From NCBI GenBank assembly GCA_951804945.1, contig OX638152.1, forward strand, positions 49,538,001 to 49,602,000: a DNA stretch of 64,000 bases, in the 5' to 3' direction. The DNA comes from Podarcis cretensis. Its lineage: Eukaryota. Position numbers and translations under genes: made by a program. Of this stretch, positions 2,961 through 64,000 are shown piece by piece; positions within the stretch are counted from its first letter, which is position 1; each line of letters opens with the position of its first letter. The notes below the pieces were generated by a model. It did no database searches, was not told the DNA's origin, and was given only the letters and a program-made list of their open reading frames with translations.

Positions 2961-5950
2961 CTTACTTCTCAGTATGCATACATGTGCTGATAAGGACATC
3001 CCAATTAATACAATTAGCCTTACTCCCTAGTAAATATAGGATGGAGCCAGCCTAACTTATCATAGGACCCAAGTAATTATTTATGGGAAAATAGGAGTGT
3101 TATTTATAAAACATCCTCTAGGTCAGCTGCCATCACAACATCCTGTGGCAAGTGCATCGATTGGATGGAATGTGAAAAAGAAACTGTTGCTGTTATTTCT
3201 TATTGGCCTCCCCACCTTTCCTTCCCTTTTTTTGGGGGGGGGGCAGGCAGTCTTGAAAGCAGGATCTGGCTTCAGGAATCTTAGAAAATGAGGCACTGTT
3301 CTTTCTCTTGTGCACGGGTCCTTATTAAGGTCTTTAATCTTTTCCATCACTATCCTGTTTCTGTGATAGGAATAGCAGTGCTTTTATGTGCTTTCATCCA
3401 GGTCATGTCTAGGTTTCTGCCCAAGCTCTATTCCTGTGCATTATGCATCTCTGCTCACCTCACCTTGCTTTGCAGCAGGGATTAGGATCATGTGATGCTG
3501 AAGATGTCATTCAACTCCCATAAATCACACCCCGCATGGTTCAGGACTAATGAGAATTGTAGTCTAGCAGCATCTGGAGGGCCACAGTTTCCCCAGCCTG
3601 CCCCACAGATTATTTACCTGATTTCTGACTCTGGCTGTTCCCTGTTCATACACTGTCCCCATTTTGAGACACATATTTAAAAATAAAGAGGAGGCGGCAG
3701 TAATTTTACATTCATCTACAAGGCAACTATGCTTAATTAACTCATTTTCAGAATATGGTTGATGGTATCTCTTAAATTATCACAGTTGTATAAAAGAAAA
3801 GAGATCAATTATTGCATCTTGTCTGTATCAAGGAAGTAGTACTCGACTGATTTATACACCATGTTTTCTATTATACTGTATCATTTATCTAGTCAAGTAT
3901 TAATTAACCATTCATTCTCAGTTTTCCCAGAAATTGCAACAGCATCTCAGAAACACATATCTATAAATAGCCTTCATGACAATGTGATGGGAATATATAA
4001 AAGTGGCCTGTAATCCTAAGCAATGCAAATGTTTGTCTGTAGATCACCACCTTCTGCACCTTAGAATAGTCTCCCCAAGGTGCCTGTCTTGATGTCACTT
4101 TGGTACCAGGCATTAATGAAACTATTAGTTCTTCTGTGCCAGTTTCTAATATTTCCCTTACACAGCATCACTTGTTGGGTTATGGATCTTTGGCTTTTAC
4201 CACCACATTGTGCTAAATGTAATTCATGCCAGTGGGTGTGGTTTGACGCAACTGCTGATGTAATTGAACATGTCATCACTCATTATGCACTTGCATGCTT
4301 CTGTTTCCCCATGATTCATTCATGAAAATGGCAGGAAAGAACTGTTTGGCAGAATACTACCCCCAATGTCATCACATGGTGTGACCCTTCAAAACCACAG
4401 AGAAATTATAGTGCAAAATTCCCAAAATTTTCCAGGTTAACAAGGTTGCAAATGACTATATTTCGGGAAGTAACTAACACAGAGACTAGTCTTAAACTTC
4501 CACTAGATTTTGTTAGATATTTAAGAAGTTGCTTTTGCAAGATAAAATTGAGACATTATTAGGGAAGGAAACATGAGGAAAACAGAATAAAATGATGTCT
4601 GAATGCAACCTAGTTCTGTTCTTATATAAAGTGCTGTTACTTCTTATTGGCTGATTTTTATCTTGTATCTTAATTTTTTAAATGATTGTTAGGAGTTTAT
4701 GTTTCTCTCTCTCATTTTCAGTGTTTCATTTTAGTTATATTGAAGGTGCAGGATACAAGGTGAGCAAATGAATTCATTAATACATTGTCCTCTTTCATTG
4801 TAGCATATTGGGCTCATCACCCTTAAAACACCAAGCCTTTCTTTGCCCTGCCACTGTTTTCCAGTCCTTCAGGAAGATGGGAGCCAGAACCAATTCAAAA
4901 TGCATAATGATTGCACACAGAAAGAGAAATTACTTAAACATGCCCATGTTTGATTCTGGTTGGGGACCAGAATGTATTTATTTATTTATAAAGTGTGTCT
5001 GATCATCCAATTGTTGCCTTTTATTGCATTGCAGAATCAGTGGCAACTTGCAAAGAATGGTTCAGGTTTTGTTCTGAATCCAGACAAAAACAGCAATTCA
5101 GTTCCATTCTTGGCACAGATTCAGGTTTGGTTTGATTCTCTGCTCATAGCTGTTTTTGGTACAATTTCTCAGCTCTCTGTCAGCTCAACTATTACCGCCC
5201 TTTGAGTGGCTGCAGTTCAGATATCTTTGCCCAGATACATTAGCATATTCTCCCAAGATGAATTTCATTTCATGGCCACATTCTTAATGCCTTTAGGACC
5301 TATTATACCACTAGTTTATCCTCAATGATGTTTAAAACAGTTTCTAATTAGGATCCTCTATAAATTTAATTACCAAGCTATTTACCTTCTCTTCCAAATC
5401 ATTAATGAAAATGCTAAATAACACCAGGGGTCCCACCAGTATAGCTTCTTACTGGATATACCATCTCAATTTTGATAGATTGCCATAAACATTTTTACAG
5501 TCTACTTCTCAATTTTTGGCTAAGGTGATCATGCTCTTATTCCTGTCATTATTCAAAGAAAGTTTTCATGAGACACAATTGCTATCATAAAATTCCACAT
5601 CAGAGCTGAAATTAGTCTTCTTTATTAAAAAAATATGATGCTGAATTTGCAAATATAAAGAGTAAGCACATTTGAATGAGCCCCGTTGTGCTTTTCTGCT
5701 TGTGAAAAAAGAATTCCATCATAAAAAAGAACTTGAAAATCAAGTTTCACACAGTGAGTTGGGGCTATTTATAATTGGGTGCAATGTTCACAAATACAGA
5801 GGAACCTACTTTTATTGTTAATATATGCATAGAGCAGACTGTAAACGGGCTGGAGATAAACCAGAAGCACAACACAACTATTCATTTATTTAGAAAAATT
5901 TGTAAACTGCTTGAACACAAAACCATCTAAGTGGTATAAACATTAAAGTG

Positions 5951-6133: not shown

Positions 6134-7349
6134 ATTTTTTATATAAATATTTTATTAAATTTTCAAGATACATAATACAAAATCCCTACACCAAAAAACC
6201 AAAACAAATACACCAAGAAACCATATAAAAAGAAGGAAATAAAAAATAAAAAACAGATACAAAGATATAACTAACTGGACTTCCTCGCATCTCCTTACCC
6301 TGCATTATTTATAATCAGAATATCAGCAAATTATTACCTTATTTCATACCTTATTTTGTACTTTCCAAATATTATACTTCTAAATTTAAAATAATTTTTA
6401 CCAATTGCTCATACGTTAAAATTAAACAAAATATTGTCTTAAATTTTGACCTTTTCTTACTTATAACTTAGTTTTCTATTTTACAAAGCCTATTCGCTGG
6501 AGCTGGTATTTTCTAAATCGTGCAAATACTTAACATTCATACAACTTATAATATTTTTGTAGATAATCCTTAAACTTCTTCCAGTCCTCTTCCATTGTTT
6601 CTTCTCCCAAGTCTCGGATTCTGCCAGTCATTTCAGCCAGTTCCATATAGTCTATCAATTGCGTCTGCCACTCTTCCAGTGTGGGCAAATCTTGTGTCTT
6701 CCAGTACTTTGCAATGAGTATTCTTGCTGCTGTTGTCGCGTACATAAAAAAGCTTCTGTCCTTCTTTAACACTTTCTGGCCGACAATGCCCAAAAGGAAG
6801 GCCTCCGGTTTCTTAACAAAGGTATATTTAAATACCTTTTTTAGTTCATTATAGATCATTTCCCAGAAGGCTTTCACTTTAGGGCATGTCCACCAGAGGT
6901 GAAAGAATGTCCCCTCAGCCTCTCTACATTTCCAACATTTATTATCAGACAGGTGATATATTTTTGCAAGCTTGACTGGGGTCATGTACCACCTATATAT
7001 CATTTTCATAATATTCTCCTTCAAGGCATTACATGCCGTGAATTTTATTCCGGTGGTCCATAACCTTTCCCAGTCCTCAAACATAATGTTATACCCAATA
7101 TCCTGAGCCCATTTTATCATGGCTGATTTAACAGTCTCATCCTGTGTGTTCCATTTAAGCAGCAAGTTATACATTCTCGAAAGTACCTTAGTCTTTGGTT
7201 CCAACAGTTCTGTCTCTAATTTCGACTTCTCCACCTGAAATCCTATCTTTTTGTCCAATTTAAAAACCTCTTGAATTTGGGCATAGTGTAACCAATCTTG
7301 CACCTTATTCTTTAATTTCTCCAAGCTCTGCAACCTCCATTTGTCTCCA
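6134..7349 (-). mobile_element. 5'-truncated L1-clade LINE (ORF2 C-terminus, 3'UTR, A-rich tail)
   Basis: 17-bp TSD tggcttgctgatttttt at 6117-6133 and 7350-7366; T-rich tail on + strand; uninterrupted ORF with CCHC motif. Confidence 0.92.
6530..7333 (-). pseudogene. L1-type ORF2 C-terminal fragment with Cys-rich zinc knuckle (267 aa, no EN/RT)
   Basis: CWKCREAEGTFFHLWWTC (C-x2-C-x8-H-x4-C) and W-rich ARILIAKYWK..EEW, typical of non-mammalian L1/Tx1 ORF2 C-termini; truncated at the element 5' end. Confidence 0.88.
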
Positions 7350-8989
7350 TGGCTTGCTGATTTTTTTTTAATAGCCAGTGTCTATAAAATATATAGTGAA
7401 AGTGTCAGTCTAATGCTAGTAGGCAGGGTGCTCCAAAGTATAGGTGTGGCAACACTAAAAGATTAACTGTTGCTTCTCAAGCAGTGGTGGAGGGAAGCAC
7501 CATCAAGCTCAGCCCCACACTTCCCTTCTCATAATGGAGACAGAATGCCTGAGTACAGTCAAGTATCTTTCACATTTTCAACCTGATCGTAATACACTTG
7601 CATAAGGATAAATTGCTGGGCTTGCTTTAAAACACTAAAATGCACACATTCATTTTAGAAAACTAAAATCAGAATTAGCCTGGAGACACTTGCTTAAAGC
7701 TTACGGTTGACTTGAACTTTGGGCATTTATGCTTCTAGCTCAGATGTAGGGGTTTCAGAGAATTCTGCCAGAAATAGCCATTCCTGCGATCTGGATGTGC
7801 CCTGACAGTGCAATTCTAGGCATGTTTTCACAATCTCATTGTGTACAACAGACTGTGTAGAGGATGTGCAGGGGATTCCAGACACAATTTGTTAAAATTT
7901 GTAATTCTTACAGCACTATCCTATGCACATCTGCTGAAAAGCAAATCTTTATTTTCAGTGAGGCTGGTTCACTGCAGTCATAACCACTTGGAAAACCGTA
8001 TTTCTACAGTCTGTGTCTGCAAGCCAGACAGCATGGTTTGTAATATCTTGAAAGTAGCTTTAGTGGCAAAAACTTCAATATACACAGGTCAAACATGATG
8101 CATGCAGCATACTGACAGTGGTACAGTATTATGGCGCTGTACGCACAAAGCCATTTCTTCTGTCCTTTCTATGTTACGCAGGATCTTCTGTGATAATCTC
8201 TAAATTCTACTTGATAATAAAACTAATTTCTCTACCAAGATTCAACTGACTGCTTATTATAGGAATGGCATTTTCTATCTTTAAAGTTCTCCCCCCCCCT
8301 TCAAAGTAACTGGGGAACTTTTATATTTCTTCAATGCAGGGACCACATAAAACCCTTTTCTAAACACTTCTTCTTAAATCACCTTGCCTCTTAAGAATCT
8401 CCTCAGGCACAGGCTCCAAGAGAGAGAAAAAGCCTTTGACTCCAAAGGACTGATAGATGGATACTAGGCAATAAAAGATGAACATCCTTCTCTGTTTTTA
8501 TTACCTCCCCTGTCAACAGTCTGCATGCTTCAAATGCTGTGTCTTCCATTGGGTCACTCACTTATATGTCATCCTCAGTTGTTGGCACTTACAATAAATG
8601 TCTATTGAAGCTGTACATGTGAAAGACCCTTTACATGTTCACTTACAGGAAACCATCTCTATCTAAATTCTCAACAATGCACCGTCCTGAAAGATTATCT
8701 AGGGCAGTGTCACACTGTGGCTACAATCCTACTGAAGTTAAACTTAAGTTTATTGAAACCAATTTGCTAAAGTGCATCAAACTCTGTGATGAATTGTGAG
8801 CTGTATCTTATGGACATGGCAGGTTCATAGTGGTGCAGTAATAAAACTGCTAGCATATGTGCAAAGTTAAGCAGGGTCCAGTATGGTTTCAAATTGGATG
8901 GGGGACCGCGTGTTAAAGATTCTGGCATTGGCCCTCAGGATACCCTCCAACTTTCCAATTCCATGTTTCTGTGACAGGGATAGACATGG

Positions 8990-31200: not shown

Positions 31201-31256
31201 TCATGTAAACATTTCAGCACAAATCTGAAGCATCACTGAAAATGCATGGGTATGCC

Positions 31257-32205
31257 CAGTGCTTTTTCCCCCTGGGGGGATGCAGGGGTACGCATACTCC
31301 TCAACATTTTGTGATTCCAAGTTTGGCCTCATTGAGGGGCAGTATTTTAATATGAGTATCATGCGAAAGGCTGGGCTGGATGAATCCCTAGCCGGAATTA
31401 AGATTGCCGGAAGAAATATCAACAACCTCAGATATGCAGATGACACAACCTTGATGGCAGAAAGTGAGGAGGAATTAAAGAACCTTTTATTGAGGGTGAA
31501 AGAGGAGAGTGCAAAATATGGTCTGAAGCTCAACATCAAAAAAACGAAGATCATGGCTACTGGTCCCATCACCTCCTGGCAAATAGAAGGGGAAGAAATG
31601 GAGGCAGTGAGAGATTTTACTTTCTTGGGCTCCATGATCACTGCAGATGGTGACAGCAGCCACGAAATTAAAAGACGCCTGCTTCTTGGGAGAAGGGCAA
31701 TGACAGGCCTAGACAGCATCTTGAGAAGTAGAGACATCACCTTGCCAACAAAGGTCCGTATAGTTAAAGCTATGGTTTTCCCAGTAGTGATGTATGGAAG
31801 TGAGAGCTGGACCATAAAGAAGGCTGATCGCCGAAGAATTGATGCTTTTGAAGGAAATCAGCCCTGAGTGCTCACTGGAAGGACAGATTGTGAAGCTGAG
31901 GCTCCAGTACTTTGGCCACCTCATGAGAAGAGAAGACTCCTTGGAGAAGATCCTGATGTTGGGAAAGATGGAGGGCACAAGGAGAAGGGGGCGACAGAGG
32001 ACGAGATGGTTGGATAGTGTTTTCGAGGTTACCAGCATGAGTCTGACCAAGCTGCGGGGGGCAGTGGAGGACAGGGGTGCCTGGCGTTCTCTGGTCCATG
32101 GGGTCACGAAGAGTCGGACACAACTAAACGACTAAACAACAACAACATTTTAATATGAGTAGGGAAATGAGAGTACCCCTAAACATTTTTTTTGAAAAAA
32201 CACTG
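31257..32205. mobile_element. short MITE (cagtgctttt...aaaaaacactg) interrupted by Bov-B
   Basis: terminal inverted repeats; the rejoined sequence is the reverse complement of 32376-32498. Confidence 0.75.
31359..32146 (+). mobile_element. Bov-B LINE, 5'-truncated, RT C-terminal region with an internal deletion
   Basis: GIKIAGRNINNLRYADDTTLMAESEEELK (YADD catalytic motif), KLRLQYFGHLMRRED..RWLD; (CAA)n tail; perfect 15-bp TSD attttaatatgagta at 31344-31358 and 32147-32161. Confidence 0.97.
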
Positions 32206-34697: not shown

Positions 34698-35537
34698 ATC
34701 CATGACAGATGGCCATCCAACCTCTGTTTAAAAACTTCCAAGGAAGGAGAGTCCACCACCTCTCATAGGAGTCTGTTCCTCTGCTGAACAGCTCTTACTG
34801 TCAGAAAGTTTTCAGAATGTTTAGTCAAAATCTCCTTTCTTGCAACTTGAAGCCATTGGTTTGAGTCCTATCCTCCGGAGCAGGAGAAAACAAGCATGCT
34901 CCCTCCTTCATATGACAACCCTTAAGTTATTTGAAGATGTGGGTTAAAGCCTCAGCGCCTAGGAGTTGCCGATCGAAAGGTCGGCGGTTCGAATCCCTGC
35001 GGCGGGGTGCGCTCCCGCTGCTCGGTCCCAGCACCTGCCAACCTAGCAGTTCGAAAGCACCTCCGGGTGCAAGTAGATAAATAGGGACTGCTTACCAGCG
35101 GGAAGGTAAACGGCGTTTCCGTGTGCGGCTCTGGCTCGCCAGAGCAGCGATGTCACGCTGGCCACGTGACCCGGAAGTGTCTCCGGACAGCGCTGGCCCC
35201 TGGCCTCTTAAGTGAGATGGGCGCACAACCCCAGAGTCTGTCAAGACTGGCCCGTACGGGCAGGGGTACCTTTACCTTTACCTTTTTATCACATCTTCTC
35301 TCTGTCTCCTCTTTTCCAGTCTAAGCATCCCCAATTCCCTTAACAGTTCCTCAAAGGGCTTGGCTTCCAGACCCTTAACATCTTGGTTACCCTCCTCTGC
35401 ACAGGTTCCAGCTTGTCAATATCCTTCTTAAATTGTGATGCCCAGTATGGGACATAGTATTCCAGGTGCAGTCTGACCAAGGCAGAATAGAGCAGGACTA
35501 TTACTTCCCTTGATCTGGACATTATACTTCTGTTTAT
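34698..35537 (-). mobile_element. CR1 LINE 3' fragment interrupted by a Sauria SINE
   Basis: peptide [37 protein letters not shown]; collinear with the CR1 at 39211. Confidence 0.9.
34938..35285 (+). mobile_element. Sauria SINE, young subfamily, slightly 5'-truncated
   Basis: B box ggttcgaatcc, (ACCTTT)n tail; near-identical to 41802 and 43399. Confidence 0.95.
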
Positions 35538-39210: not shown

Positions 39211-39828
39211 CATAGAATCATAGAATCATAGAGTTGGAAGAGACCACAAGGGCTATCGAGTCCAACCCCTTGCCAAACAGGAAACACCATCAGAGCACTC
39301 CTGACATATGGTTGTCAAGCCTCTGCTTAAAGACCTCCAAAGAAGGAGACTCCACCACACTCCTTGGCAGCAAATTCCACTGTCGAACAGCTCTTACTTT
39401 CAGGAAGTTCTTCCTAATGTTTAGGTGGAATCTTCTTTCTTGTAGTTTGGATCCATTGCTCCGTGTCCGCTTCTCTGGAGCAGCAGAAAACAACCTTTCT
39501 CCCTCCTCTATGTGACATCCTTTTATATATTTGAACATGGCTATCATATCACCCCTTAACCTCCTCTTCTCCAGGCTAAACATGCCCAGCTCCCTTAGCC
39601 GTTCCTCACAAGGCATCGTTTCCAGGCCTTTGACCATTTTGGTTACCCTCCTCTGGACACGTTCCAGTTTGTCAGTGTCCTTCTTGAACTGTGGTGCCCA
39701 GAACTGGACACAGTACTCCAGGTGAGGTCTGACCAGAGCAGAATACAGTGGCACTATTACTTCCCTTGATCTAGATGCTATACTCCTATTGATGCAGCCC
39801 AGAATTGCATTGGCTTTTTTAGCTGCCG
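39211..39828 (-). mobile_element. CR1 LINE 3' fragment, young, frame intact
   Basis: [62 protein letters not shown]; 8-bp (ATTCTATG)n tail at 39211-39232. Confidence 0.96.
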
Positions 39829-41801
39829 ACCTAAGTGATTGGAGTGGCTTTTTTCTGATTTCCCCTTCCTTCTCCTGCAGTGAACCCTCCCCTGCTGTGG
39901 TCTTATGCATCATCCAGGTGGTACAGGAGACTGCAGAGGGGTGGGAAGCAGGAAAGAATGGACAGAAATTACCGGTACTGCCATGCTCTCTTCCTCCAGC
40001 ATAAGCAGAATTCCACCGAGTGCAAGTCTGGGGCTAACCTACAGAGTGCAATCCCAACCCATTAGAATCAATTCACTTTTTGCTTTTGCTACTGGCTTTA
40101 AATAAGATACAGATTGTCCTCATCTTTATTCTAGTTTTCATATTGGGGCATTCTCATGACCATGACCATGGCCAAGAAGCCAAGAGCAAGAACATAGGAG
40201 CTACACACTTGCTCCCCCTCTTGTCCCTGCCTCTCTTTCCTGCATGGTCCCTTCTCCCCTTCCAGTGTCAGGATTAACCAAAGTGGGCAGATTTGTATGG
40301 GAGAGCAGAGGAGGGAGAAGACCATGTGAAGTCACCATGCGCTCCCAGTCTCTTAAGCATAGTTAAGAAATTAAAATAGGATGTCTGCTCTTGTCCCTAC
40401 TGACTAATATAGTCATAGATATAAATGTAGCACAATCATTTGCTATGAATTGTTTGTCTCACCCCATGGGGTTTACATCCTAGCATGCGCGTTAAGGATT
40501 GCCCCATTAAGTGAACATGAGCTTGTGGAAGAGGATGACTGTGCTCTGTCAAAGGTTTGTGCAGGAGAATCTCTTGGTGGATTCAACTTAATAACAACAT
40601 AGTAGGGATGCTTCGAGTCTGCAAGTGTTTTGCAGGAGGGATTCAACATAGCAGGAAATTTAGGTTTGCAAAAATAGTGTAGATTAAAGCACTCTGGTAC
40701 ACTAGTGCAACAGATCCACTTTAGCTAACAATGTGACTCCGTGCAGTTAGAAGAGTGATGGGGACATGCAATAAAAAGTATGGGATGAATCGAGATTAAT
40801 AGGAAGACATATAAACACCCCACAAACAGATCAGGCTGAATGCAGGATAAACACTCTTAATCATGCAACCTCCCCACAAACAAATCTGAATAAATACTGG
40901 ATAACCCCCAAGTAAGCTTTCTGCAAGCAAATCAGTGCTCCATAAGTAGGTTATCTGGAGAAGTACTAGGATTAGAAATCAGACCTTCTTTTGCAACACC
41001 TCTGATGTGCAAGGCCTCCGATTCCTGAAAAAAATGTTATCATTTTTAATTTGCATTAAAACATAAAGTGATTTCAGATTATTTCAGATGGGGAAAGAAA
41101 TATATTTTTAAAAGCAAAGTTGTAGTTTTAACATTGCATATCCAAGTCATCCATATCCCAATGCATTTCATAATGATCTTCAATGATACATTTGTGTGTG
41201 TGTTGCTCTATTAAGATAGATATATGTGGTTCTTTCCCTGAGGGTGTCCGTGTTATTTCTCCTCTTCAGGATGTCTGCATTGAAGATCATGCTGTCAGCT
41301 CCTGAAGATTTCAGTATGGCTCCCTGCAATCCTTGATTTGCCACAAGGCATTTGAAATCCAGTCTGTGCTTTATTCAAGTAAGTGCATATAAGGTAGAAG
41401 AACTCCATCAACATTCGTATATCCCTTTCCCCCATAGTGACAGACCCATTAGAAGTCCACAGTTTATCTGAGTGAGTCATAACAATATGAGCATTTAAAT
41501 GTTGCTAGTATATTAGAGCATCCATTTTGATGCAATAAAGAGGACAGTTTACCACAAGCTCCATGAACTCTGGACAAAATGAAAGAATTGTGTCTTAAAA
41601 GGATTTGTGTGGGTGTGTGGGTGTGCAGAATTGCAAAATTGCAAGAAGAGGGGAAGTTGGTTTATCCTGAATATTTTCCCATCTACTATGCAATCATACT
41701 GTCAGTGATGCTCCATCATCTCAGGTGTAGATCTTTCCTATCACCTCTTACCTGATCCTTTTAACTGGAGTTTGTATTTGACCTTCTGTATGCAGAATGT
41801 G

Positions 41802-42166
41802 GTGAGACGCAGGTGGCGCTGTGGGTTAAAGCCTCAGCGCCTAGGACTTGCTGATTGAAAGGTCGGCGGTTCGAATCCCTGCGGCGGCGTGCGCTCCCGC
41901 TGCTCGGTCCCAGCGCCTGCCAACCTAGCAGTTCGAAAGCACCTCCGGGTGCAAGTAGATAAATAGGGACCGCTTACCGGCGGGAAGGTAAACGGCGTTT
42001 CCGTGTGCGGCTCTGGCTCGCCAGAGCAGCGATGTCACGCTGGCCACGTGACCCGGAAGTGTCTCCGGACAGCGCTGGCCCCTGGCCTCTTGAGTGAGAT
42101 GGGCGCACAACCCCAGAGTCTGTCAAGACTGGCCCGTATGGGCAGGGGTACCTTTACCTTTACCTT
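41802..42166 (+). mobile_element. Sauria SINE, full length, young subfamily
   Basis: A box tggcgctgtgg, B box ggttcgaatcc, (ACCTTT)n tail; perfect 13-bp TSD tatgcagaatgtg at 41789-41801 and 42167-42179. Confidence 0.96.
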
Positions 42167-43292: not shown

Positions 43293-44273
43293 GTGAGTAA
43301 CCAGTGTGATGCAGCAGCAAAAAATCCTTAATGCTATTCTAGGCTGCATCCACAGAGGTATAGTGTCTCAATCAAGGGAAGTAATAGTACCACTCTATGA
43401 CGCAGGTGGCGCTGTGGGTTAAAGCCTCAGTGCCTAGGACTTGCCGATCGAAAGGTCGGCGGTTCGAATCCCTGCGGCGGGGTGCGCTCCCGCTGCTCAG
43501 TCCCAGCGCCTGCCAACCTAGCAGTTCGAAAGCACCTCCGGGTGCAAGTAGATAAATAGGGACCGCTTACCAGCGGGAAGGTAAACGGCGTTTCCGTGTG
43601 CGGCTCTGGCTCGCCAGAGCAGCGATGTCACGCTGGCCACGTGACCCAGAAGTGTCTCCGGACAGCGCTGGCCCCTGGCCTCTTAAGTGAGATGGGCGCA
43701 CAACCCCAGAGTCTGGCAAGACTGGCCCGTACGGGCAGGGGTACCTTTACCTTTACCTTTATTCTGCCTTGGTCAGGCCACACCTGGAGTAGTGTGCTCA
43801 GTTCTGGGCACCACATTTTATGAAGGATATTGACAAAGCTGGAATGTCTGCATAGGAGGGTGAACAATATGATAAGGGTTTGGAATCCCAGTCTTATGAG
43901 GAATAGTTGAGGGAGTTGGGGACATTTAGCTTGGAGAAAAGGAGACTGAGGGGAGATATGATAGCCATCTTCAAATATCTAAGGGACTGTCACATGAAAA
44001 ATGGAACAAGGTGATTTTCTCCTGCTCTGGAAGCTAGGAGCTGAACCAATGGCTTCAGGTTACATGAAAGGAAATTCTGTCTAAACTTCAGGAAAGACTT
44101 TCTTACAGTAAGAGATGTTCAACAGTGAAACTGACTCCCATGAGAGGTGGTGGACTCTCCTTCCTTGGAGATTTTTAAGCAGACGTTGGCCACCTGTTGA
44201 GATTCCTGCACTGCAAGGAGTTGGATTAGATGGCCCTCACAGTCCCTTCCAGCTCTACAATTCTGTGATTCTA
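43293..44273 (+). mobile_element. CR1 LINE 3' fragment interrupted by a Sauria SINE
   Basis: aatgctattctaggctgcatc..agggaagtaatagtaccactctat|tctgccttggtcaggccacacctggagt..; attctgtgattct tail; reverse complement of the 39211 CR1. Confidence 0.9.
43399..43759 (+). mobile_element. Sauria SINE, young subfamily
   Basis: near-identical to 41802; inserted in CR1 with only a 3-bp (tat) duplication. Confidence 0.95.
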
Positions 44274-54689: not shown

Positions 54690-55515
54690 TGTCAGAGCTG
54701 CCTCTAGGTCCCAGCTCACAGAGGACCAACACTATGCTGTAGTAATGTACAAAAGTCTTTATTGAAGTTCAGTTTCCATTTCAAAGCCACAGCGTGCAGC
54801 CCTACGTCTTAAACCCTAGATCGGCGAAGTCCCGTCTGAGTCTCCTCCCCTATGACACCAGTTTAAGATCCTAGCCCTGCTCCACCTTTTACGCTGCTCT
54901 CTCCTCCTCTGGGTCCTCCTGCCCGCTGGGGCATTGCCCTTTCTGGACTCTTCCGACGCTGAGTCGCTTAGCTCCTCCCCCTGCCTCCTGCGGGCTTTAG
55001 GACCCGGTTCCCAATCCTCATTCTCTGCTGTCCCGCGCTCCTGTACATGTGAACTTGCCTCTCGCGCCAGCCCAGTGACCTTTCTCCTAACCGTTACACT
55101 ACTTCGGTCACTGCTTCCCTCTTCCGAGACACTGGCCGGATCTGACCTCTCCTCCGTTGTCCGACTTTCTGATGGAGGCGTGGTCAGCCCTGCCTTATCT
55201 TCTCTCCCTGGTGGGGAATGCACTGGCCCCGATCCTTGGGACTCTTCCCCCCCACTCTGCTCTGGTGGGGAAGCTGGTCCTGATTTCCAGCTACTGCTCT
55301 GGGAGTCCCTGCTGCCCCCTTGCTCCTGGGGCGTTCCCCTTGGGAACCCCCTACCCCTGGCCACTGGCGCCCCCTTCTGTGAATCTTCCGATTCGCTGGA
55401 GAGGCTCATGGAATCCCTCGGTCCACTGTCCTCTTCTCCTACGCTCCCCTCGGATTCTTCCCCTTCGCTCTCCATCTCCTCTCTTCCCTGTGCCTCTGCT
55501 CCTGAACCCCTGACA
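54690..55515 (-). mobile_element. solo LTR (826 bp), probably Gypsy/Ty3-type
   Basis: TGTCAG...CTGACA termini; perfect 5-bp TSD gaaag at 54685-54689 and 55516-55520; minus-strand AATAAA at 54758-54763; sharp GC increase. Confidence 0.88.
54816..55475 (-). CDS. putative LTR-encoded low-complexity protein (219 aa; acidic/Ser-rich with Arg-rich C-terminus)
   Basis: uninterrupted frame covering most of the LTR, open from LTR nucleotide 2; motif similarity to the decayed frame in the 61417 LTR; translation unproven. Confidence 0.5.
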   Translation of the reverse strand: MESEGEESEGSVGEEDSGPRDSMSLSSESEDSQKGAPVARGRGFPRGTPQEQGGSRDSQSSSWKSGPASPPEQSGGEESQGSGPVHSPPGREDKAGLTTPPSESRTTEERSDPASVSEEGSSDRSSVTVRRKVTGLAREASSHVQERGTAENEDWEPGPKARRRQGEELSDSASEESRKGNAPAGRRTQRRREQRKRWSRARILNWCHRGGDSDGTSPI

Positions 55516-60844: not shown

Positions 60845-61416
60845 AACAAAGTGAGGTCAGCTGCTCCTTTGTAAGGGAGCACCACCCTTGAGGCCTGCTC
60901 TTTTGCTTCATTGCAGTGACCCACTTAGTGGGTTACATTAGTGTTGCATTTTGGCTGGGCAGGGAACAAACTTGGGCATAAGGTGAGCACCGTTAGGCAC
61001 CCTCAGAAAAAGGGGCTCTGGCCAACCACCCCACATTGTCGTCCAGCTTAAGGGCTGCTTGGTCTGCTGTTCTTGGATCTGAAGGAGCTGTCCAGTTGAA
61101 TATTGGACTGTAGGGACAGAAAGAGCCCACTCCCAGCTCATTTTTATGATGAGCGGAGAATGAGAACCTAACCTTAGTTTAAATTGGGTGAGTAGGTTTG
61201 AGCTGTGGTGCTGTTGCCCAGAACCAAAGTTTGGCCTGCTCTTTATTCCTCAGAGCAATTTCCAAGTCTGCTGCTATTTGCTATGCCTTGCTGCAGACCT
61301 TTAAGCTCCTGTTAGCAAAACCTATGCCCTTTCCATCAGACACCTACCTCATGAGTCTTCATTCTAGCTATCTGGGAGCAATACCCTTTCTTTCTTCTCA
61401 GTACACTTTGCATGGC

Positions 61417-61884
61417 TGTCAGAGACATGGCCAGAAGAGAGGAATCTGCAGAGGGGGAGGAAGAGGCACAGGAAAACAGGAACTTAATTCTCTCACACAA
61501 CAAAAGTGTGATAAGTCCTTCTCGCTCTGGATTGCTGCCTGTAAATTTATGCAGCAGCACAGAGATGAAGGAGCAGGATGCAGGTGGTAGGAGGGGGTTG
61601 GATTCAACTCCAGAGGGGTAGGAATTGGCCGCACCTGAGTCTCCAAGAAGCAGGAGGCGGAGCAAGCGATGAGAACAAAAGAGGACCAGCAGGAAGTGGG
61701 GGAGGGCTGGGCATATATCTAGCCTTGGAAGGGGCCAGAAGCCAGTTGAGTCAACTGACTCTGACAGTGAGGAATGAGTTGTGGGAAGCTTAGATTTCTG
61801 AATGCCTGTTGTTGATAAATAAACCTCAACTAGTAAAACTGCCAGCGTTTCGTGTCTTGTGTGGGAGAAGTGCTAAACCTGACA
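61417..61884 (+). mobile_element. solo LTR (468 bp), probably Gypsy/Ty3-type
   Basis: TGTCAG...CTGACA termini; perfect 5-bp TSD atggc at 61412-61416 and 61885-61889; AATAAA at 61818-61823. Confidence 0.85.
61418..61777 (+). pseudogene. decayed LTR-internal ORF resembling the 54816-55475 ORF
   Basis: VRDMARREESAEGEEEAQE...PEG*ELAAPESPRSRRRSKR*EQKRTSRKWGRAGHISSLGRGQKPVESTDSDSEE*; two in-frame stops (61619, 61670), no frameshift. Confidence 0.5.
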
Positions 61885-64000
61885 ATGGCTCTGCTTGGTT
61901 GTTAGAAGTAGTTGCTCCCATTGTCTGACTGCATTCATGGAACGACAACCATACCAATATTTTTGTGGGTGCATCTTACTGCCTTTGTGTTCCATTTGAT
62001 GTCAGAATTTCACAATGTCATTTTTAGTAACTCTTGGATTTTGTGAGTATTAACATACCAGGAGCTGTGGCCTTGCTCACTACATTCGCCTGCCTGCCTC
62101 CCCTTCAACCCTCCTCTCACCAAATCCACCCCCTCCCCTCCATTTATTACTCACCAAAGCCATCCGGCCCTCCCTTTGCACCTCACCAAAGCTTTGTGAT
62201 AAGTAAAATTGCATACAAATGTGCACGGCATAATAACTTCACACTCACAATATGGGACCTGTTCCTAGTGGAAGAGGAAGATGAGGGGGGGAGGGGGAGA
62301 GCTGCCACTTACTAAGCCCTGCTGCCTTGCTCTGTCTAAGACAGAAGCTGAATAGTAGTGTCTCCTCTTCATTCTTTAATTTTTACCCTCCCATTGACCT
62401 GAGTGGAAGATAAAATAACCCACCAGTTCCAGAGATGGCAGAGTTTATTGGTCCTTCTGGGGGCATGTCAGGGGTCTATGTCATACCCCTTTTTGTGTAC
62501 CACAGAGTAGTGCCAATGGTGCAGAAAGAATGGTGGAAATTTCTGTCAGTGTGCCAGGGGGCTATATGCACAGACCTTCCTCTCTGTTCCAGAGAGGAAG
62601 CTCTACAGCAGCCAATGGACCCTCAGGTGCCTTCTCCAAATGTAGTCTGTGCTAGGCACAGTGACAGTATGAGACAGAACAACTCCAGTATAAGCTTTAG
62701 TTTTGCCCTGGATCCTTCCAGATAGATCTGTGGCAAAATGAAATTGTTCCTGTTCCATCACAGGAATGTCTCAGGGTGCTCTGCTGTTCTCACAACACAA
62801 TAGTATGGAAAGTAGTTTTTGTTTCAAAATAATATTTCATGCTTCTCTAGGATTTTTCTTTAGAACCATCTGGAGCAGAAAGAAAATGTTTCAAGAGACA
62901 TGGCTTCATCTGTTGCCCAAATATTTGACACCCATAGCTAACATTTATACATTTAGCAAGCAGGGTAAAGTTGTTTTAGAAGCAGTGATTTGGTCATTGA
63001 TCCAAAACGGTTTTAATATTCAAGGACAGAGCTGAACATAGGAAACAAGGTTATAATAAAGAATATTTCTTGTTAAACAAAGTAGCCATGTTTATTCATA
63101 TTTGCAAACATACAATTCAAAGACAAGAGCTGCTTATAATGTTTCAAAGCTAAACTGAAGTGTGTTCTCAAAACTTGTATTCATGGTTTTGAAAATTTTG
63201 TATTCATGTATTTGGCATTCCTGTTTATGATCTTCTCCATGAGATAATCCTCAAACCTTTGTTCTCTAATCCTTCTTTATCGTGTCTAATTTGAACTTTC
63301 TTTTTGGCCTTCTTAAGGATTTCAGATTCAGAGCTTCCCTTAATGAGATGAGTTTGTTACTTTAACATAAATGAAATTCATTTTTGTACAATGATTTCTC
63401 AAATAGGCAATGCCAGCTTAATATTTGGGCTTAGAACATGCTATATGGACAGAATTGTATTGAATATGTAGTCAGAATATTAAAGAAATCGTTTTAATTC
63501 TTGTATTCCAGCAACTATTATAATAAAGGCAGCAATGGCTGCTCGTAAATGAAGTATAAGAGGACCTATTTTTCTGACTTATATATGTTCATTTTGCAGA
63601 CATTATTTTGACTGATAGGAAGATCACTTGAAACCCCTGATCTGTTGCACTTGCGTTTAGGAGGAGTGGGAGCTTCCTTCTGTCCAGCCCTATCCTGCTC
63701 TGCCCTTGGTAGGAAAGCTTTATTGGCAGGAAGCACCCTAATATGCCCAGCCACATGGCACATGGGCAAGGCTTGGCAGTAACTTCATTGACAATAGCTA
63801 ACAGAAACTCTGTTAAACAAGATGTTTGAGGGATCAGAATGGGGTGGGCAGGCACAAGATCTGCTGGATTCTGTGTGGACCCTGCTGCTGTCATGTGACA
63901 GCAACAGGTCAAATCGGGGCCTCCTTCCTGTGCCAGCCTGGCAGCAGTGGGACCAATCCAGGCCTCTGGGCTGTGCCAATCTGACTGGTATAAGCACTGG

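Follow-up and report, generated by a model that had tools for sequence, protein, structure and literature searches.

A selected reading frame in lizard chromovirus LTRs, probably the C-terminal tail of Pol

Introduction

What is a long, nearly open sense frame doing in a solo LTR? The question is raised by a 64,000-nucleotide stretch of the Podarcis cretensis genome (here the window; positions 49,538,001 to 49,602,000 of contig OX638152.1, assembly GCA_951804945.1), in which two solo LTRs each carry such a frame. A sequence-only reading of the window had proposed that the two, though unalike as DNA, encode members of one LTR-encoded protein family with a disordered linker of variable length. 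Coding, purifying selection and a disordered linker of variable length are all found, but the family is not an independent one; it is the C-terminal end of Pol. For the LTR that is the subject here (family B), the reading that we consider very probable is that it is a chromovirus solo LTR whose frame is the C-terminal tail of the Pol integrase-chromodomain region, read via the PPT into the 3' LTR.

The two window LTRs

Much of what had been said of the pair was borne out. Their lengths (468 versus 826 bp), their identical termini and the 5-bp TSD on each are as described; useful DNA similarity is lacking between them (best BLASTN E 0.046), and both frames open at LTR base 2 with Val-Arg and contain the peptides that had been singled out. 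A poly(A) signal 60–70 bp from the LTR end holds for the family B copy (67 nt) but not for the other, of family A (74 nt). A likeness of the two peptides beyond composition was not borne out: 29 in 1000 full shuffles and 92 in 1000 local ones did as well as the whole peptide, and 362 in 1000 as well as the N-terminal match. The C-terminal 50 amino acids match better, only 5 of 1000 full shuffles being as good. With family HMMs, 199/500 (B against A) and 164/500 (A against B) local shuffles scored as well. No special motif is needed for the common Val-Arg start, because the invariant TGTCAG terminus is read in the frame arriving from pol, and the DSD end is conserved partly because putative cis-elements, a TATA-like box and a self-primer, lie there. 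The features of both elements are collected in Table 1.

Table 1. Features of the family B solo LTR and of the family A comparison element in the window
Feature	Positions	Strand	Remarks
Solo LTR, family B, Ty3/Gypsy chromovirus (assigned from sequence)	61417..61884	+	468 bp; termini TGTCAG..CTGACA
TSD, left copy	61412..61416		ATGGC, 5 bp
TSD, right copy	61885..61889		ATGGC, 5 bp
Probable Pol C-terminal tail, broken in this copy	61418..61777	+	119 codons and terminal stop
Internal stop, codon 68	61619..61621	+	Private to the window copy
Internal stop, codon 85	61670..61672	+	Private; other copies without Arg/CpG codon there
SP and Arg-rich block, codons 68–96	61619..61705	+	Most constrained part of the tail (dN/dS, B versus C)
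Putative TATA-like box, within the coding frame	61712..61718	+	About 30 nt upstream of self-primer match
Predicted self-primer and transcription start (start of R), codons ~109–113	61744..61754	+	10/11 match to complement of L164 PBS
AATAAA poly(A) signal	61818..61823	+	40 nt downstream of terminal stop
Solo LTR, family A, comparison element	54690..55515	-	826 bp; 5-bp TSD; young (~99% identical copies)
Family A Pol tail	54816..55514	-	232 codons and stop; open in this copy

Near the two LTRs no long host ORF is evident. Repeat fragments lie elsewhere in the window, at 6530–7381, 31229–31867, 39290–40033, 34924–35223, 41806–42105 and 43399–43698; some of them we take to resemble LINE reverse-transcriptase ends and others a recurring SINE-like repeat of about 300 bp.

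An old family that keeps its frame

When the genome (1.5 Gb in 51 contigs) was searched with family B DNA, 54 matches besides the window copy were found at 74–93% identity, the best 40 of 103 candidates having been scored. Over 30 loci, 5-bp TSDs are exact in 14 and carry one mismatch in 8 more, and the loci have no internal sequence in common. The window copy differs from 20 other family B copies by a median of 12.6%, and by its sequence the family is to be regarded as old.

The terminal stop of the window frame is common to 23 of 24 family B copies, and the frame from base 2 has no majority-stop column, the other two sense frames having 5 and 6. Neither internal stop recurs in other copies (0/25 and 0/23), so that each belongs to the window copy alone. 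The idea that the TGA in KR*EQ is a CpG-decayed CGA did not survive: neither Arg nor any CGN codon stands there in the 23 other copies aligned at that place. It is the codon before this second stop that has the pattern of CpG decay, being a stop in 5/23 copies and CGN in 11/23.

Relatives with the same LTR ends make up subfamilies B2, B3 and C, some shorter and some longer than B. The most frequent start-to-stop lengths, 357, 306 and 195 nt, are each divisible by three, and overall the phase is kept in 25 of 46 copies. Within B, pairwise dN/dS is near neutral at 0.74 (CI 0.51–1.10), as expected from decay after insertion, and the window copy would itself now be decaying neutrally. In old LTR families E and F (L226–L230, L236, L238, L209, L237) the base-2 frame starts Val-Arg-Asp, and several of these LTRs have an SP-R/K-xRR..(E/A)Q motif.

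Selection on the frame

Comparison between families gives another picture than comparison within B, and purifying selection that is specific to the frame is seen in A/A2, in D and in B/C. For the young pair A and A2, dN/dS of the tail is 0.30 and 0.34 (CI 0.21–0.49), against 0.98–1.40 for the shifted sense frames and 0.08–0.10 for the integrase core; with the last 32 codons removed it is still 0.30 (0.20–0.45). A post-stop control of 42 codons in the same pair leaned to third positions too. Four D pairs gave 0.27–0.57, the one at 0.57 with a CI spanning 1.

For the old families a codon was compared only where the two copies taken from each subfamily agreed on it, and the values are to be read with dS near saturation (B versus C), with CpG inflating dS and with few columns. 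The contrast of synonymous with non-synonymous change that had been called for did reveal constraint at the protein level and in this frame: dN/dS is 0.25 (0.11–0.51) for B versus C and 0.20 (0.07–0.71) for B versus B3, the value for B versus B2, 0.43 (CI 0.17–1.16), not being significant. Shifted sense frames of B/C range overall from 0.8 to 2.5. Along the B–C comparison the constraint is uneven, with 0.29 (0.10–0.69) for codons 1–67, 0.06 (0.02–0.33) for codons 68–96, where the shifted frames give 2.48 and 1.64, and 0.43 (0.08–1.56) for codons 97–119. B3 versus C gave 1.30 for codons 1–67, on 20 columns. Arginine is retained across the AGR and CGN codon families.

Pol reads into the 3' LTR

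Where could such a frame come from if not from within the LTR? Read-through from pol is directly observed in families A, A2, D and G, in which the Pol frame crosses the PPT and ends 101–126 nt before the end of the 3' LTR. Family A yielded 2464 candidates, of which the best 40 scored are ~99% identical, and its 232-codon frame is open in 27 of 30 loci. A full-length family A element has gag, protease, RT, RNase H, integrase, SH3 and a weak chromodomain match. Thirty further 3' ends were taken, ranked by likeness to an out-of-phase copy; among the 28 that could be scored, 10 are in phase with the chromodomain and 6 can be read from it as far as the LTR stop without interruption, while in the other 18 the phase is lost and the PPT G-runs differ in length. 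Read-through is found in 9 of 12 A2 stretches (selected for long frames) and at 14 of 18 family D junctions (20 loci, two without a junction), and 7 of 8 family G junctions are in phase, the whole tail being open in 2 of the 8.

Four G-runs just before the 3' LTR in L064–L093 are of variable length in family A, and an independent DNA run disagrees with the assembly on them; the out-of-phase copy used for the ranking is one whose G-run length differs in that run. The G-runs of the PPT are thus a hotspot of frameshifts or of assembly error. Tandem or nested layouts also occur: a PBS-like sequence lies directly 3' of the 3' LTR in L073 and L083, the LTR start is repeated ahead of the junction in L228, and in L034 (508–1332) a second LTR, 88% identical, lies ~170 nt upstream of a young one.

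For family B, read-through is deduced from one old junction copy, L175, in which integrase SH3 and chromodomain (37% identical, E 3e-23) are in frame with a B2 LTR but an in-frame stop stands five codons before it. L164 has a B-like LTR ahead of gag, protease and the beginning of RT. A hunt for further B-family junctions by DNA, protein and pattern yielded L175 and L197 alone, the junction being deleted in the latter. Thirty loci of the clade held 14 junctions with an upstream chromodomain, 9 of them in phase and 5 out of phase; L175 is the only one of the 14 to be stopped in the ten codons before the LTR, so that its stop is probably a lesion. In a tree of 13 SH3-chromodomain stretches B2 groups with E, F and unnamed old copies, with A and D apart.

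Gene models tell a similar story. UniRef entries of Podarcis muralis named 'Gypsy retrotransposon integrase-like protein 1' (P0001, P0002, P0004, P0005, P0008–P0010) have an A- or D-type tail, wholly or in part, at their C-terminus, and their names give no hint of its LTR origin. P0007, a UniRef model of a Podarcis muralis phospholipid-transporting ATPase, ends in ~45 residues of D-type LTR tail, and this end is either an annotation chimera or an exonised solo LTR. Two contig sets presumed to be RNA showed no joints, which speaks neither for nor against.

Promoter, self-primer and stop

In a full element the genomic RNA would end at the poly(A) site of the 3' LTR, so that U3 can be promoter DNA and coding sequence at once. 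The sequence after the 5' LTR is a perfect 10–12 nt complement of a site 126–149 nt before the LTR end. Eight pairs were tried and five were found, all five having the complement (two from A2 and one each from D, G and the B-like L164; equalled in 0–4 of 300 shuffles). No tRNA-type PBS was found after the 5' LTR. In family A the self-primer match is 11/11 in L073, 10/11 in L061 and absent in L083, and between A and A2 one base is changed on each side of the pairing.

Transcription is predicted to start near 61744, ~30 nt after the TATA-like box at 61712, both falling within the final 25 codons. The TATA-like box coincides with the I-S-x-W/L codons, and the self-primer with the V-E-S-T or D-G-T codons. 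With a start near codon 109, the promoter of a solo LTR would not lead to a transcript of its tail. The position of the stop is also regular: in all eight LTRs examined (six families, tails of 100–232 codons) it falls 101–126 nt before the LTR end, and in six of the eight it is 35–52 nt before the poly(A) signal.

Layout and predicted structure of the tail

The tail would begin with an acidic stretch, continue through a disordered spacer of free length to an SP and Arg-rich block, and close with a short acidic end. In the four tails measured the first 30 residues are acidic, 9–12 basic residues lie at -45 to -15 and 67–76% of residues are disorder-prone. AlphaFold2 on a D-type protein (9 sequences; mean pLDDT of the model 45.6) folded the chromodomain and gave residues 285–474 pLDDT below 50. 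Held-out HMM tests found the C-terminal pattern common to B, C and D (0/500 local shuffles as good in each); against local shuffles A (38/500, 167/500) and G (62/500) were not significant.

Pfam has no family for the A and B tails and gave only single weak matches to a 19-member motif alignment (Rev, E 0.07), while the best match of the tail among PDB sequences had E 1.2. The motif profile, run against a set of 5.8 billion proteins, gave two matches at E<=1 among 7999 scored candidates, one a Logan contig protein and one a Podarcis muralis model, both D-type; a search of this strength sets no limit to the taxonomic range.

The processed integrase would bear the tail behind its chromodomain, presumably keeping it on the mature enzyme. 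By analogy with basic integrase C-termini, and with the potential NLS noted for CRM Beetle integrases in the accessible text of PMC3605345, nuclear import or chromatin tethering is a likely role.

Other explanations

Could the frame instead be a stand-alone accessory gene of the LTR, of the nef or sag kind, with its own ATG and a spliced or internally started RNA? The stop before the LTR in the one B2 junction and the majority of family A copies out of phase with Pol would suit such a gene. An ATG at the required place is, however, missing from most B3 copies and from C, D and G, there being no conserved ATG at the tail start across these four; Pol runs stop-free into the LTR in four families, and the database gene models are fusions. 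We regard an accessory gene as quite improbable. To suppose that the motifs are DNA or RNA cis-elements (GC box, TATA, self-primer) in a purine-rich U3, with the frame a tolerated read-through that has no protein function, is a view to which the conserved end codons lend something, coinciding as they do with the TATA-like box and self-primer, as do the wide interval on codons 97–119 in B versus C and the weak direct A–B peptide match. Against it, the constraint is specific to the frame and strongest upstream of the TATA-like box, it extends to codons 1–67, the A–A2 value stands when the last 32 codons are left out, and Arg is kept across both codon families. As an account of the whole frame it is highly improbable. 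The sequence-only reading had itself named a promoter element as a competitor, and there is a partial truth in this: such an explanation is disfavoured for codons 1–96 but is to some extent right for the final ~25 codons, where the TATA-like box and self-primer lie.

It may also be asked whether the sense frame is but the shadow of a real gene on the other strand. Each of the window LTRs has an antisense frame that is almost open, and the dN/dS of this frame for A versus A2 is 0.38–0.44. That frame nevertheless has its third positions in common with the sense frame and no early Met, and its number of stops (0–3) is what synonymous-codon shuffling gives in all eight tails (fraction 0.17–1.0). 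An antisense gene is scarcely credible and was rejected, the near-open frame being the shadow of sense codon usage. The tail of Pol, read through the PPT, is the explanation that we carry forward.

Comparison with known systems

By its sequence the window LTR is assigned to a self-priming, Tf1/sushi-type family of Ty3/Gypsy chromoviruses. The order gag then PR-RT-RH-IN is present in the family A element L061, whose gag frame (4314–5447) is overlapped by a pol frame in a different frame from 5258; for B-like LTRs there are pieces only, a gag-PR-RT start (L164) and an IN end (L175). The chromodomain PF00385 is found on P0006 and P0008–P0010, and the family A match (E 0.009) falls below the cut-off. 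Tf1/sushi elements, the Fungi/Vertebrates chromoviruses or V-clade, are described in the accessible text of 10.1101/2022.12.06.519325 and PMC2774666 as having gag-PR-RT-RH-IN-chromodomain, a gag/pol overlap and a PBS complementary to the start of R. The lizard elements share the domain order, the overlap in different frames and the self-priming PBS, but have a long selected Pol tail filling U3, which those portions of the two papers do not describe.

A closer likeness in layout comes from plants. The available sections of PMC3059260 and PMC3605345 have the polyprotein frame of CRM group A chromoviruses entering the 3' LTR, where the integrase C-terminus is encoded (the CR motif, whose partner is left unidentified in that part of PMC3059260), and PMC3605345 reports positively charged residues with a potential NLS for CRM Beetle integrases. 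Here too a chromovirus Pol frame enters the 3' LTR, as seen in A, A2, D and G and deduced for B. In CRM-A, to go by the same sections, the CR motif replaces the chromodomain and the primer is tRNA-Met, whereas the lizard elements keep a chromodomain upstream of the PPT and have a PBS complementary to their own LTR; and while in the plant hosts the LTR codes for the integrase end, in this vertebrate its part is an extra tail of 65–232 residues. With chromodomain kept and self-priming, the lizard elements are not members of CRM-A, alike as the layout is.

Retroviral nef and sag stand apart as accessory genes, each with an mRNA of its own. The long sense ORF in U3 of HIV/SIV (nef) and MMTV (sag), as given in the accessible text of PMC2664473, resembles the lizard frame in filling U3, but the latter is continuous with pol and without a conserved start codon of its own. 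The literature search, which took in few subscription journals, found no account of such a tail in the LTRs of squamates or other vertebrates; Butler et al. 2001, on vertebrate members of the Tf1/sushi group, may mention one.

Location in the genome and what the tail may mean

Internal copies of the young families A/A2 and G crowd at both contig ends. Of 142 integrase-bearing A/A2 matches, 56 are found less than 1 Mb from a contig end, where 2.5% would be expected, 8 on one contig of unknown length being left out; 7 of 40 A LTRs lie within 1 Mb, and 6 of 6 G junctions within 2 Mb (2 dropped). None of 39 old B solo LTRs is near a contig end. Four end-located copies (L078, L090, L188, L189) are inserted at different points of one common repeat, and Tandem Repeats Finder gave no array in the L189 flank (longest period 500). 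All these lists are best-match samples, and retention bias could give the same pattern as targeting. It is unlikely that the Arg-rich LTR peptide, regulated at SP, is an independently evolved second targeting module of lizard Tf1/sushi chromoviruses, akin to the CR motif, that steers integration into chromosome-end repeats; were it so, the copies at contig ends would be explained, and promoter and targeting peptide would evolve together in the LTR.

The LTR-encoded Pol tail is real and selected, in a layout already known from plant CRM. It explains the long open frames in thousands of solo LTRs of this lizard genome as Pol tails, not host or accessory genes, and such tails can leak into gene models, as in P0007. 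Nearly all LTR length variation is taken up by the in-frame spacer, and one short sequence is put to triple use, at once promoter, self-primer and protein. Should the Arg-rich block prove to be a signal for targeting or import, vertebrates would have a counterpart of the plant CR motif, in the form of a short peptide open to testing.
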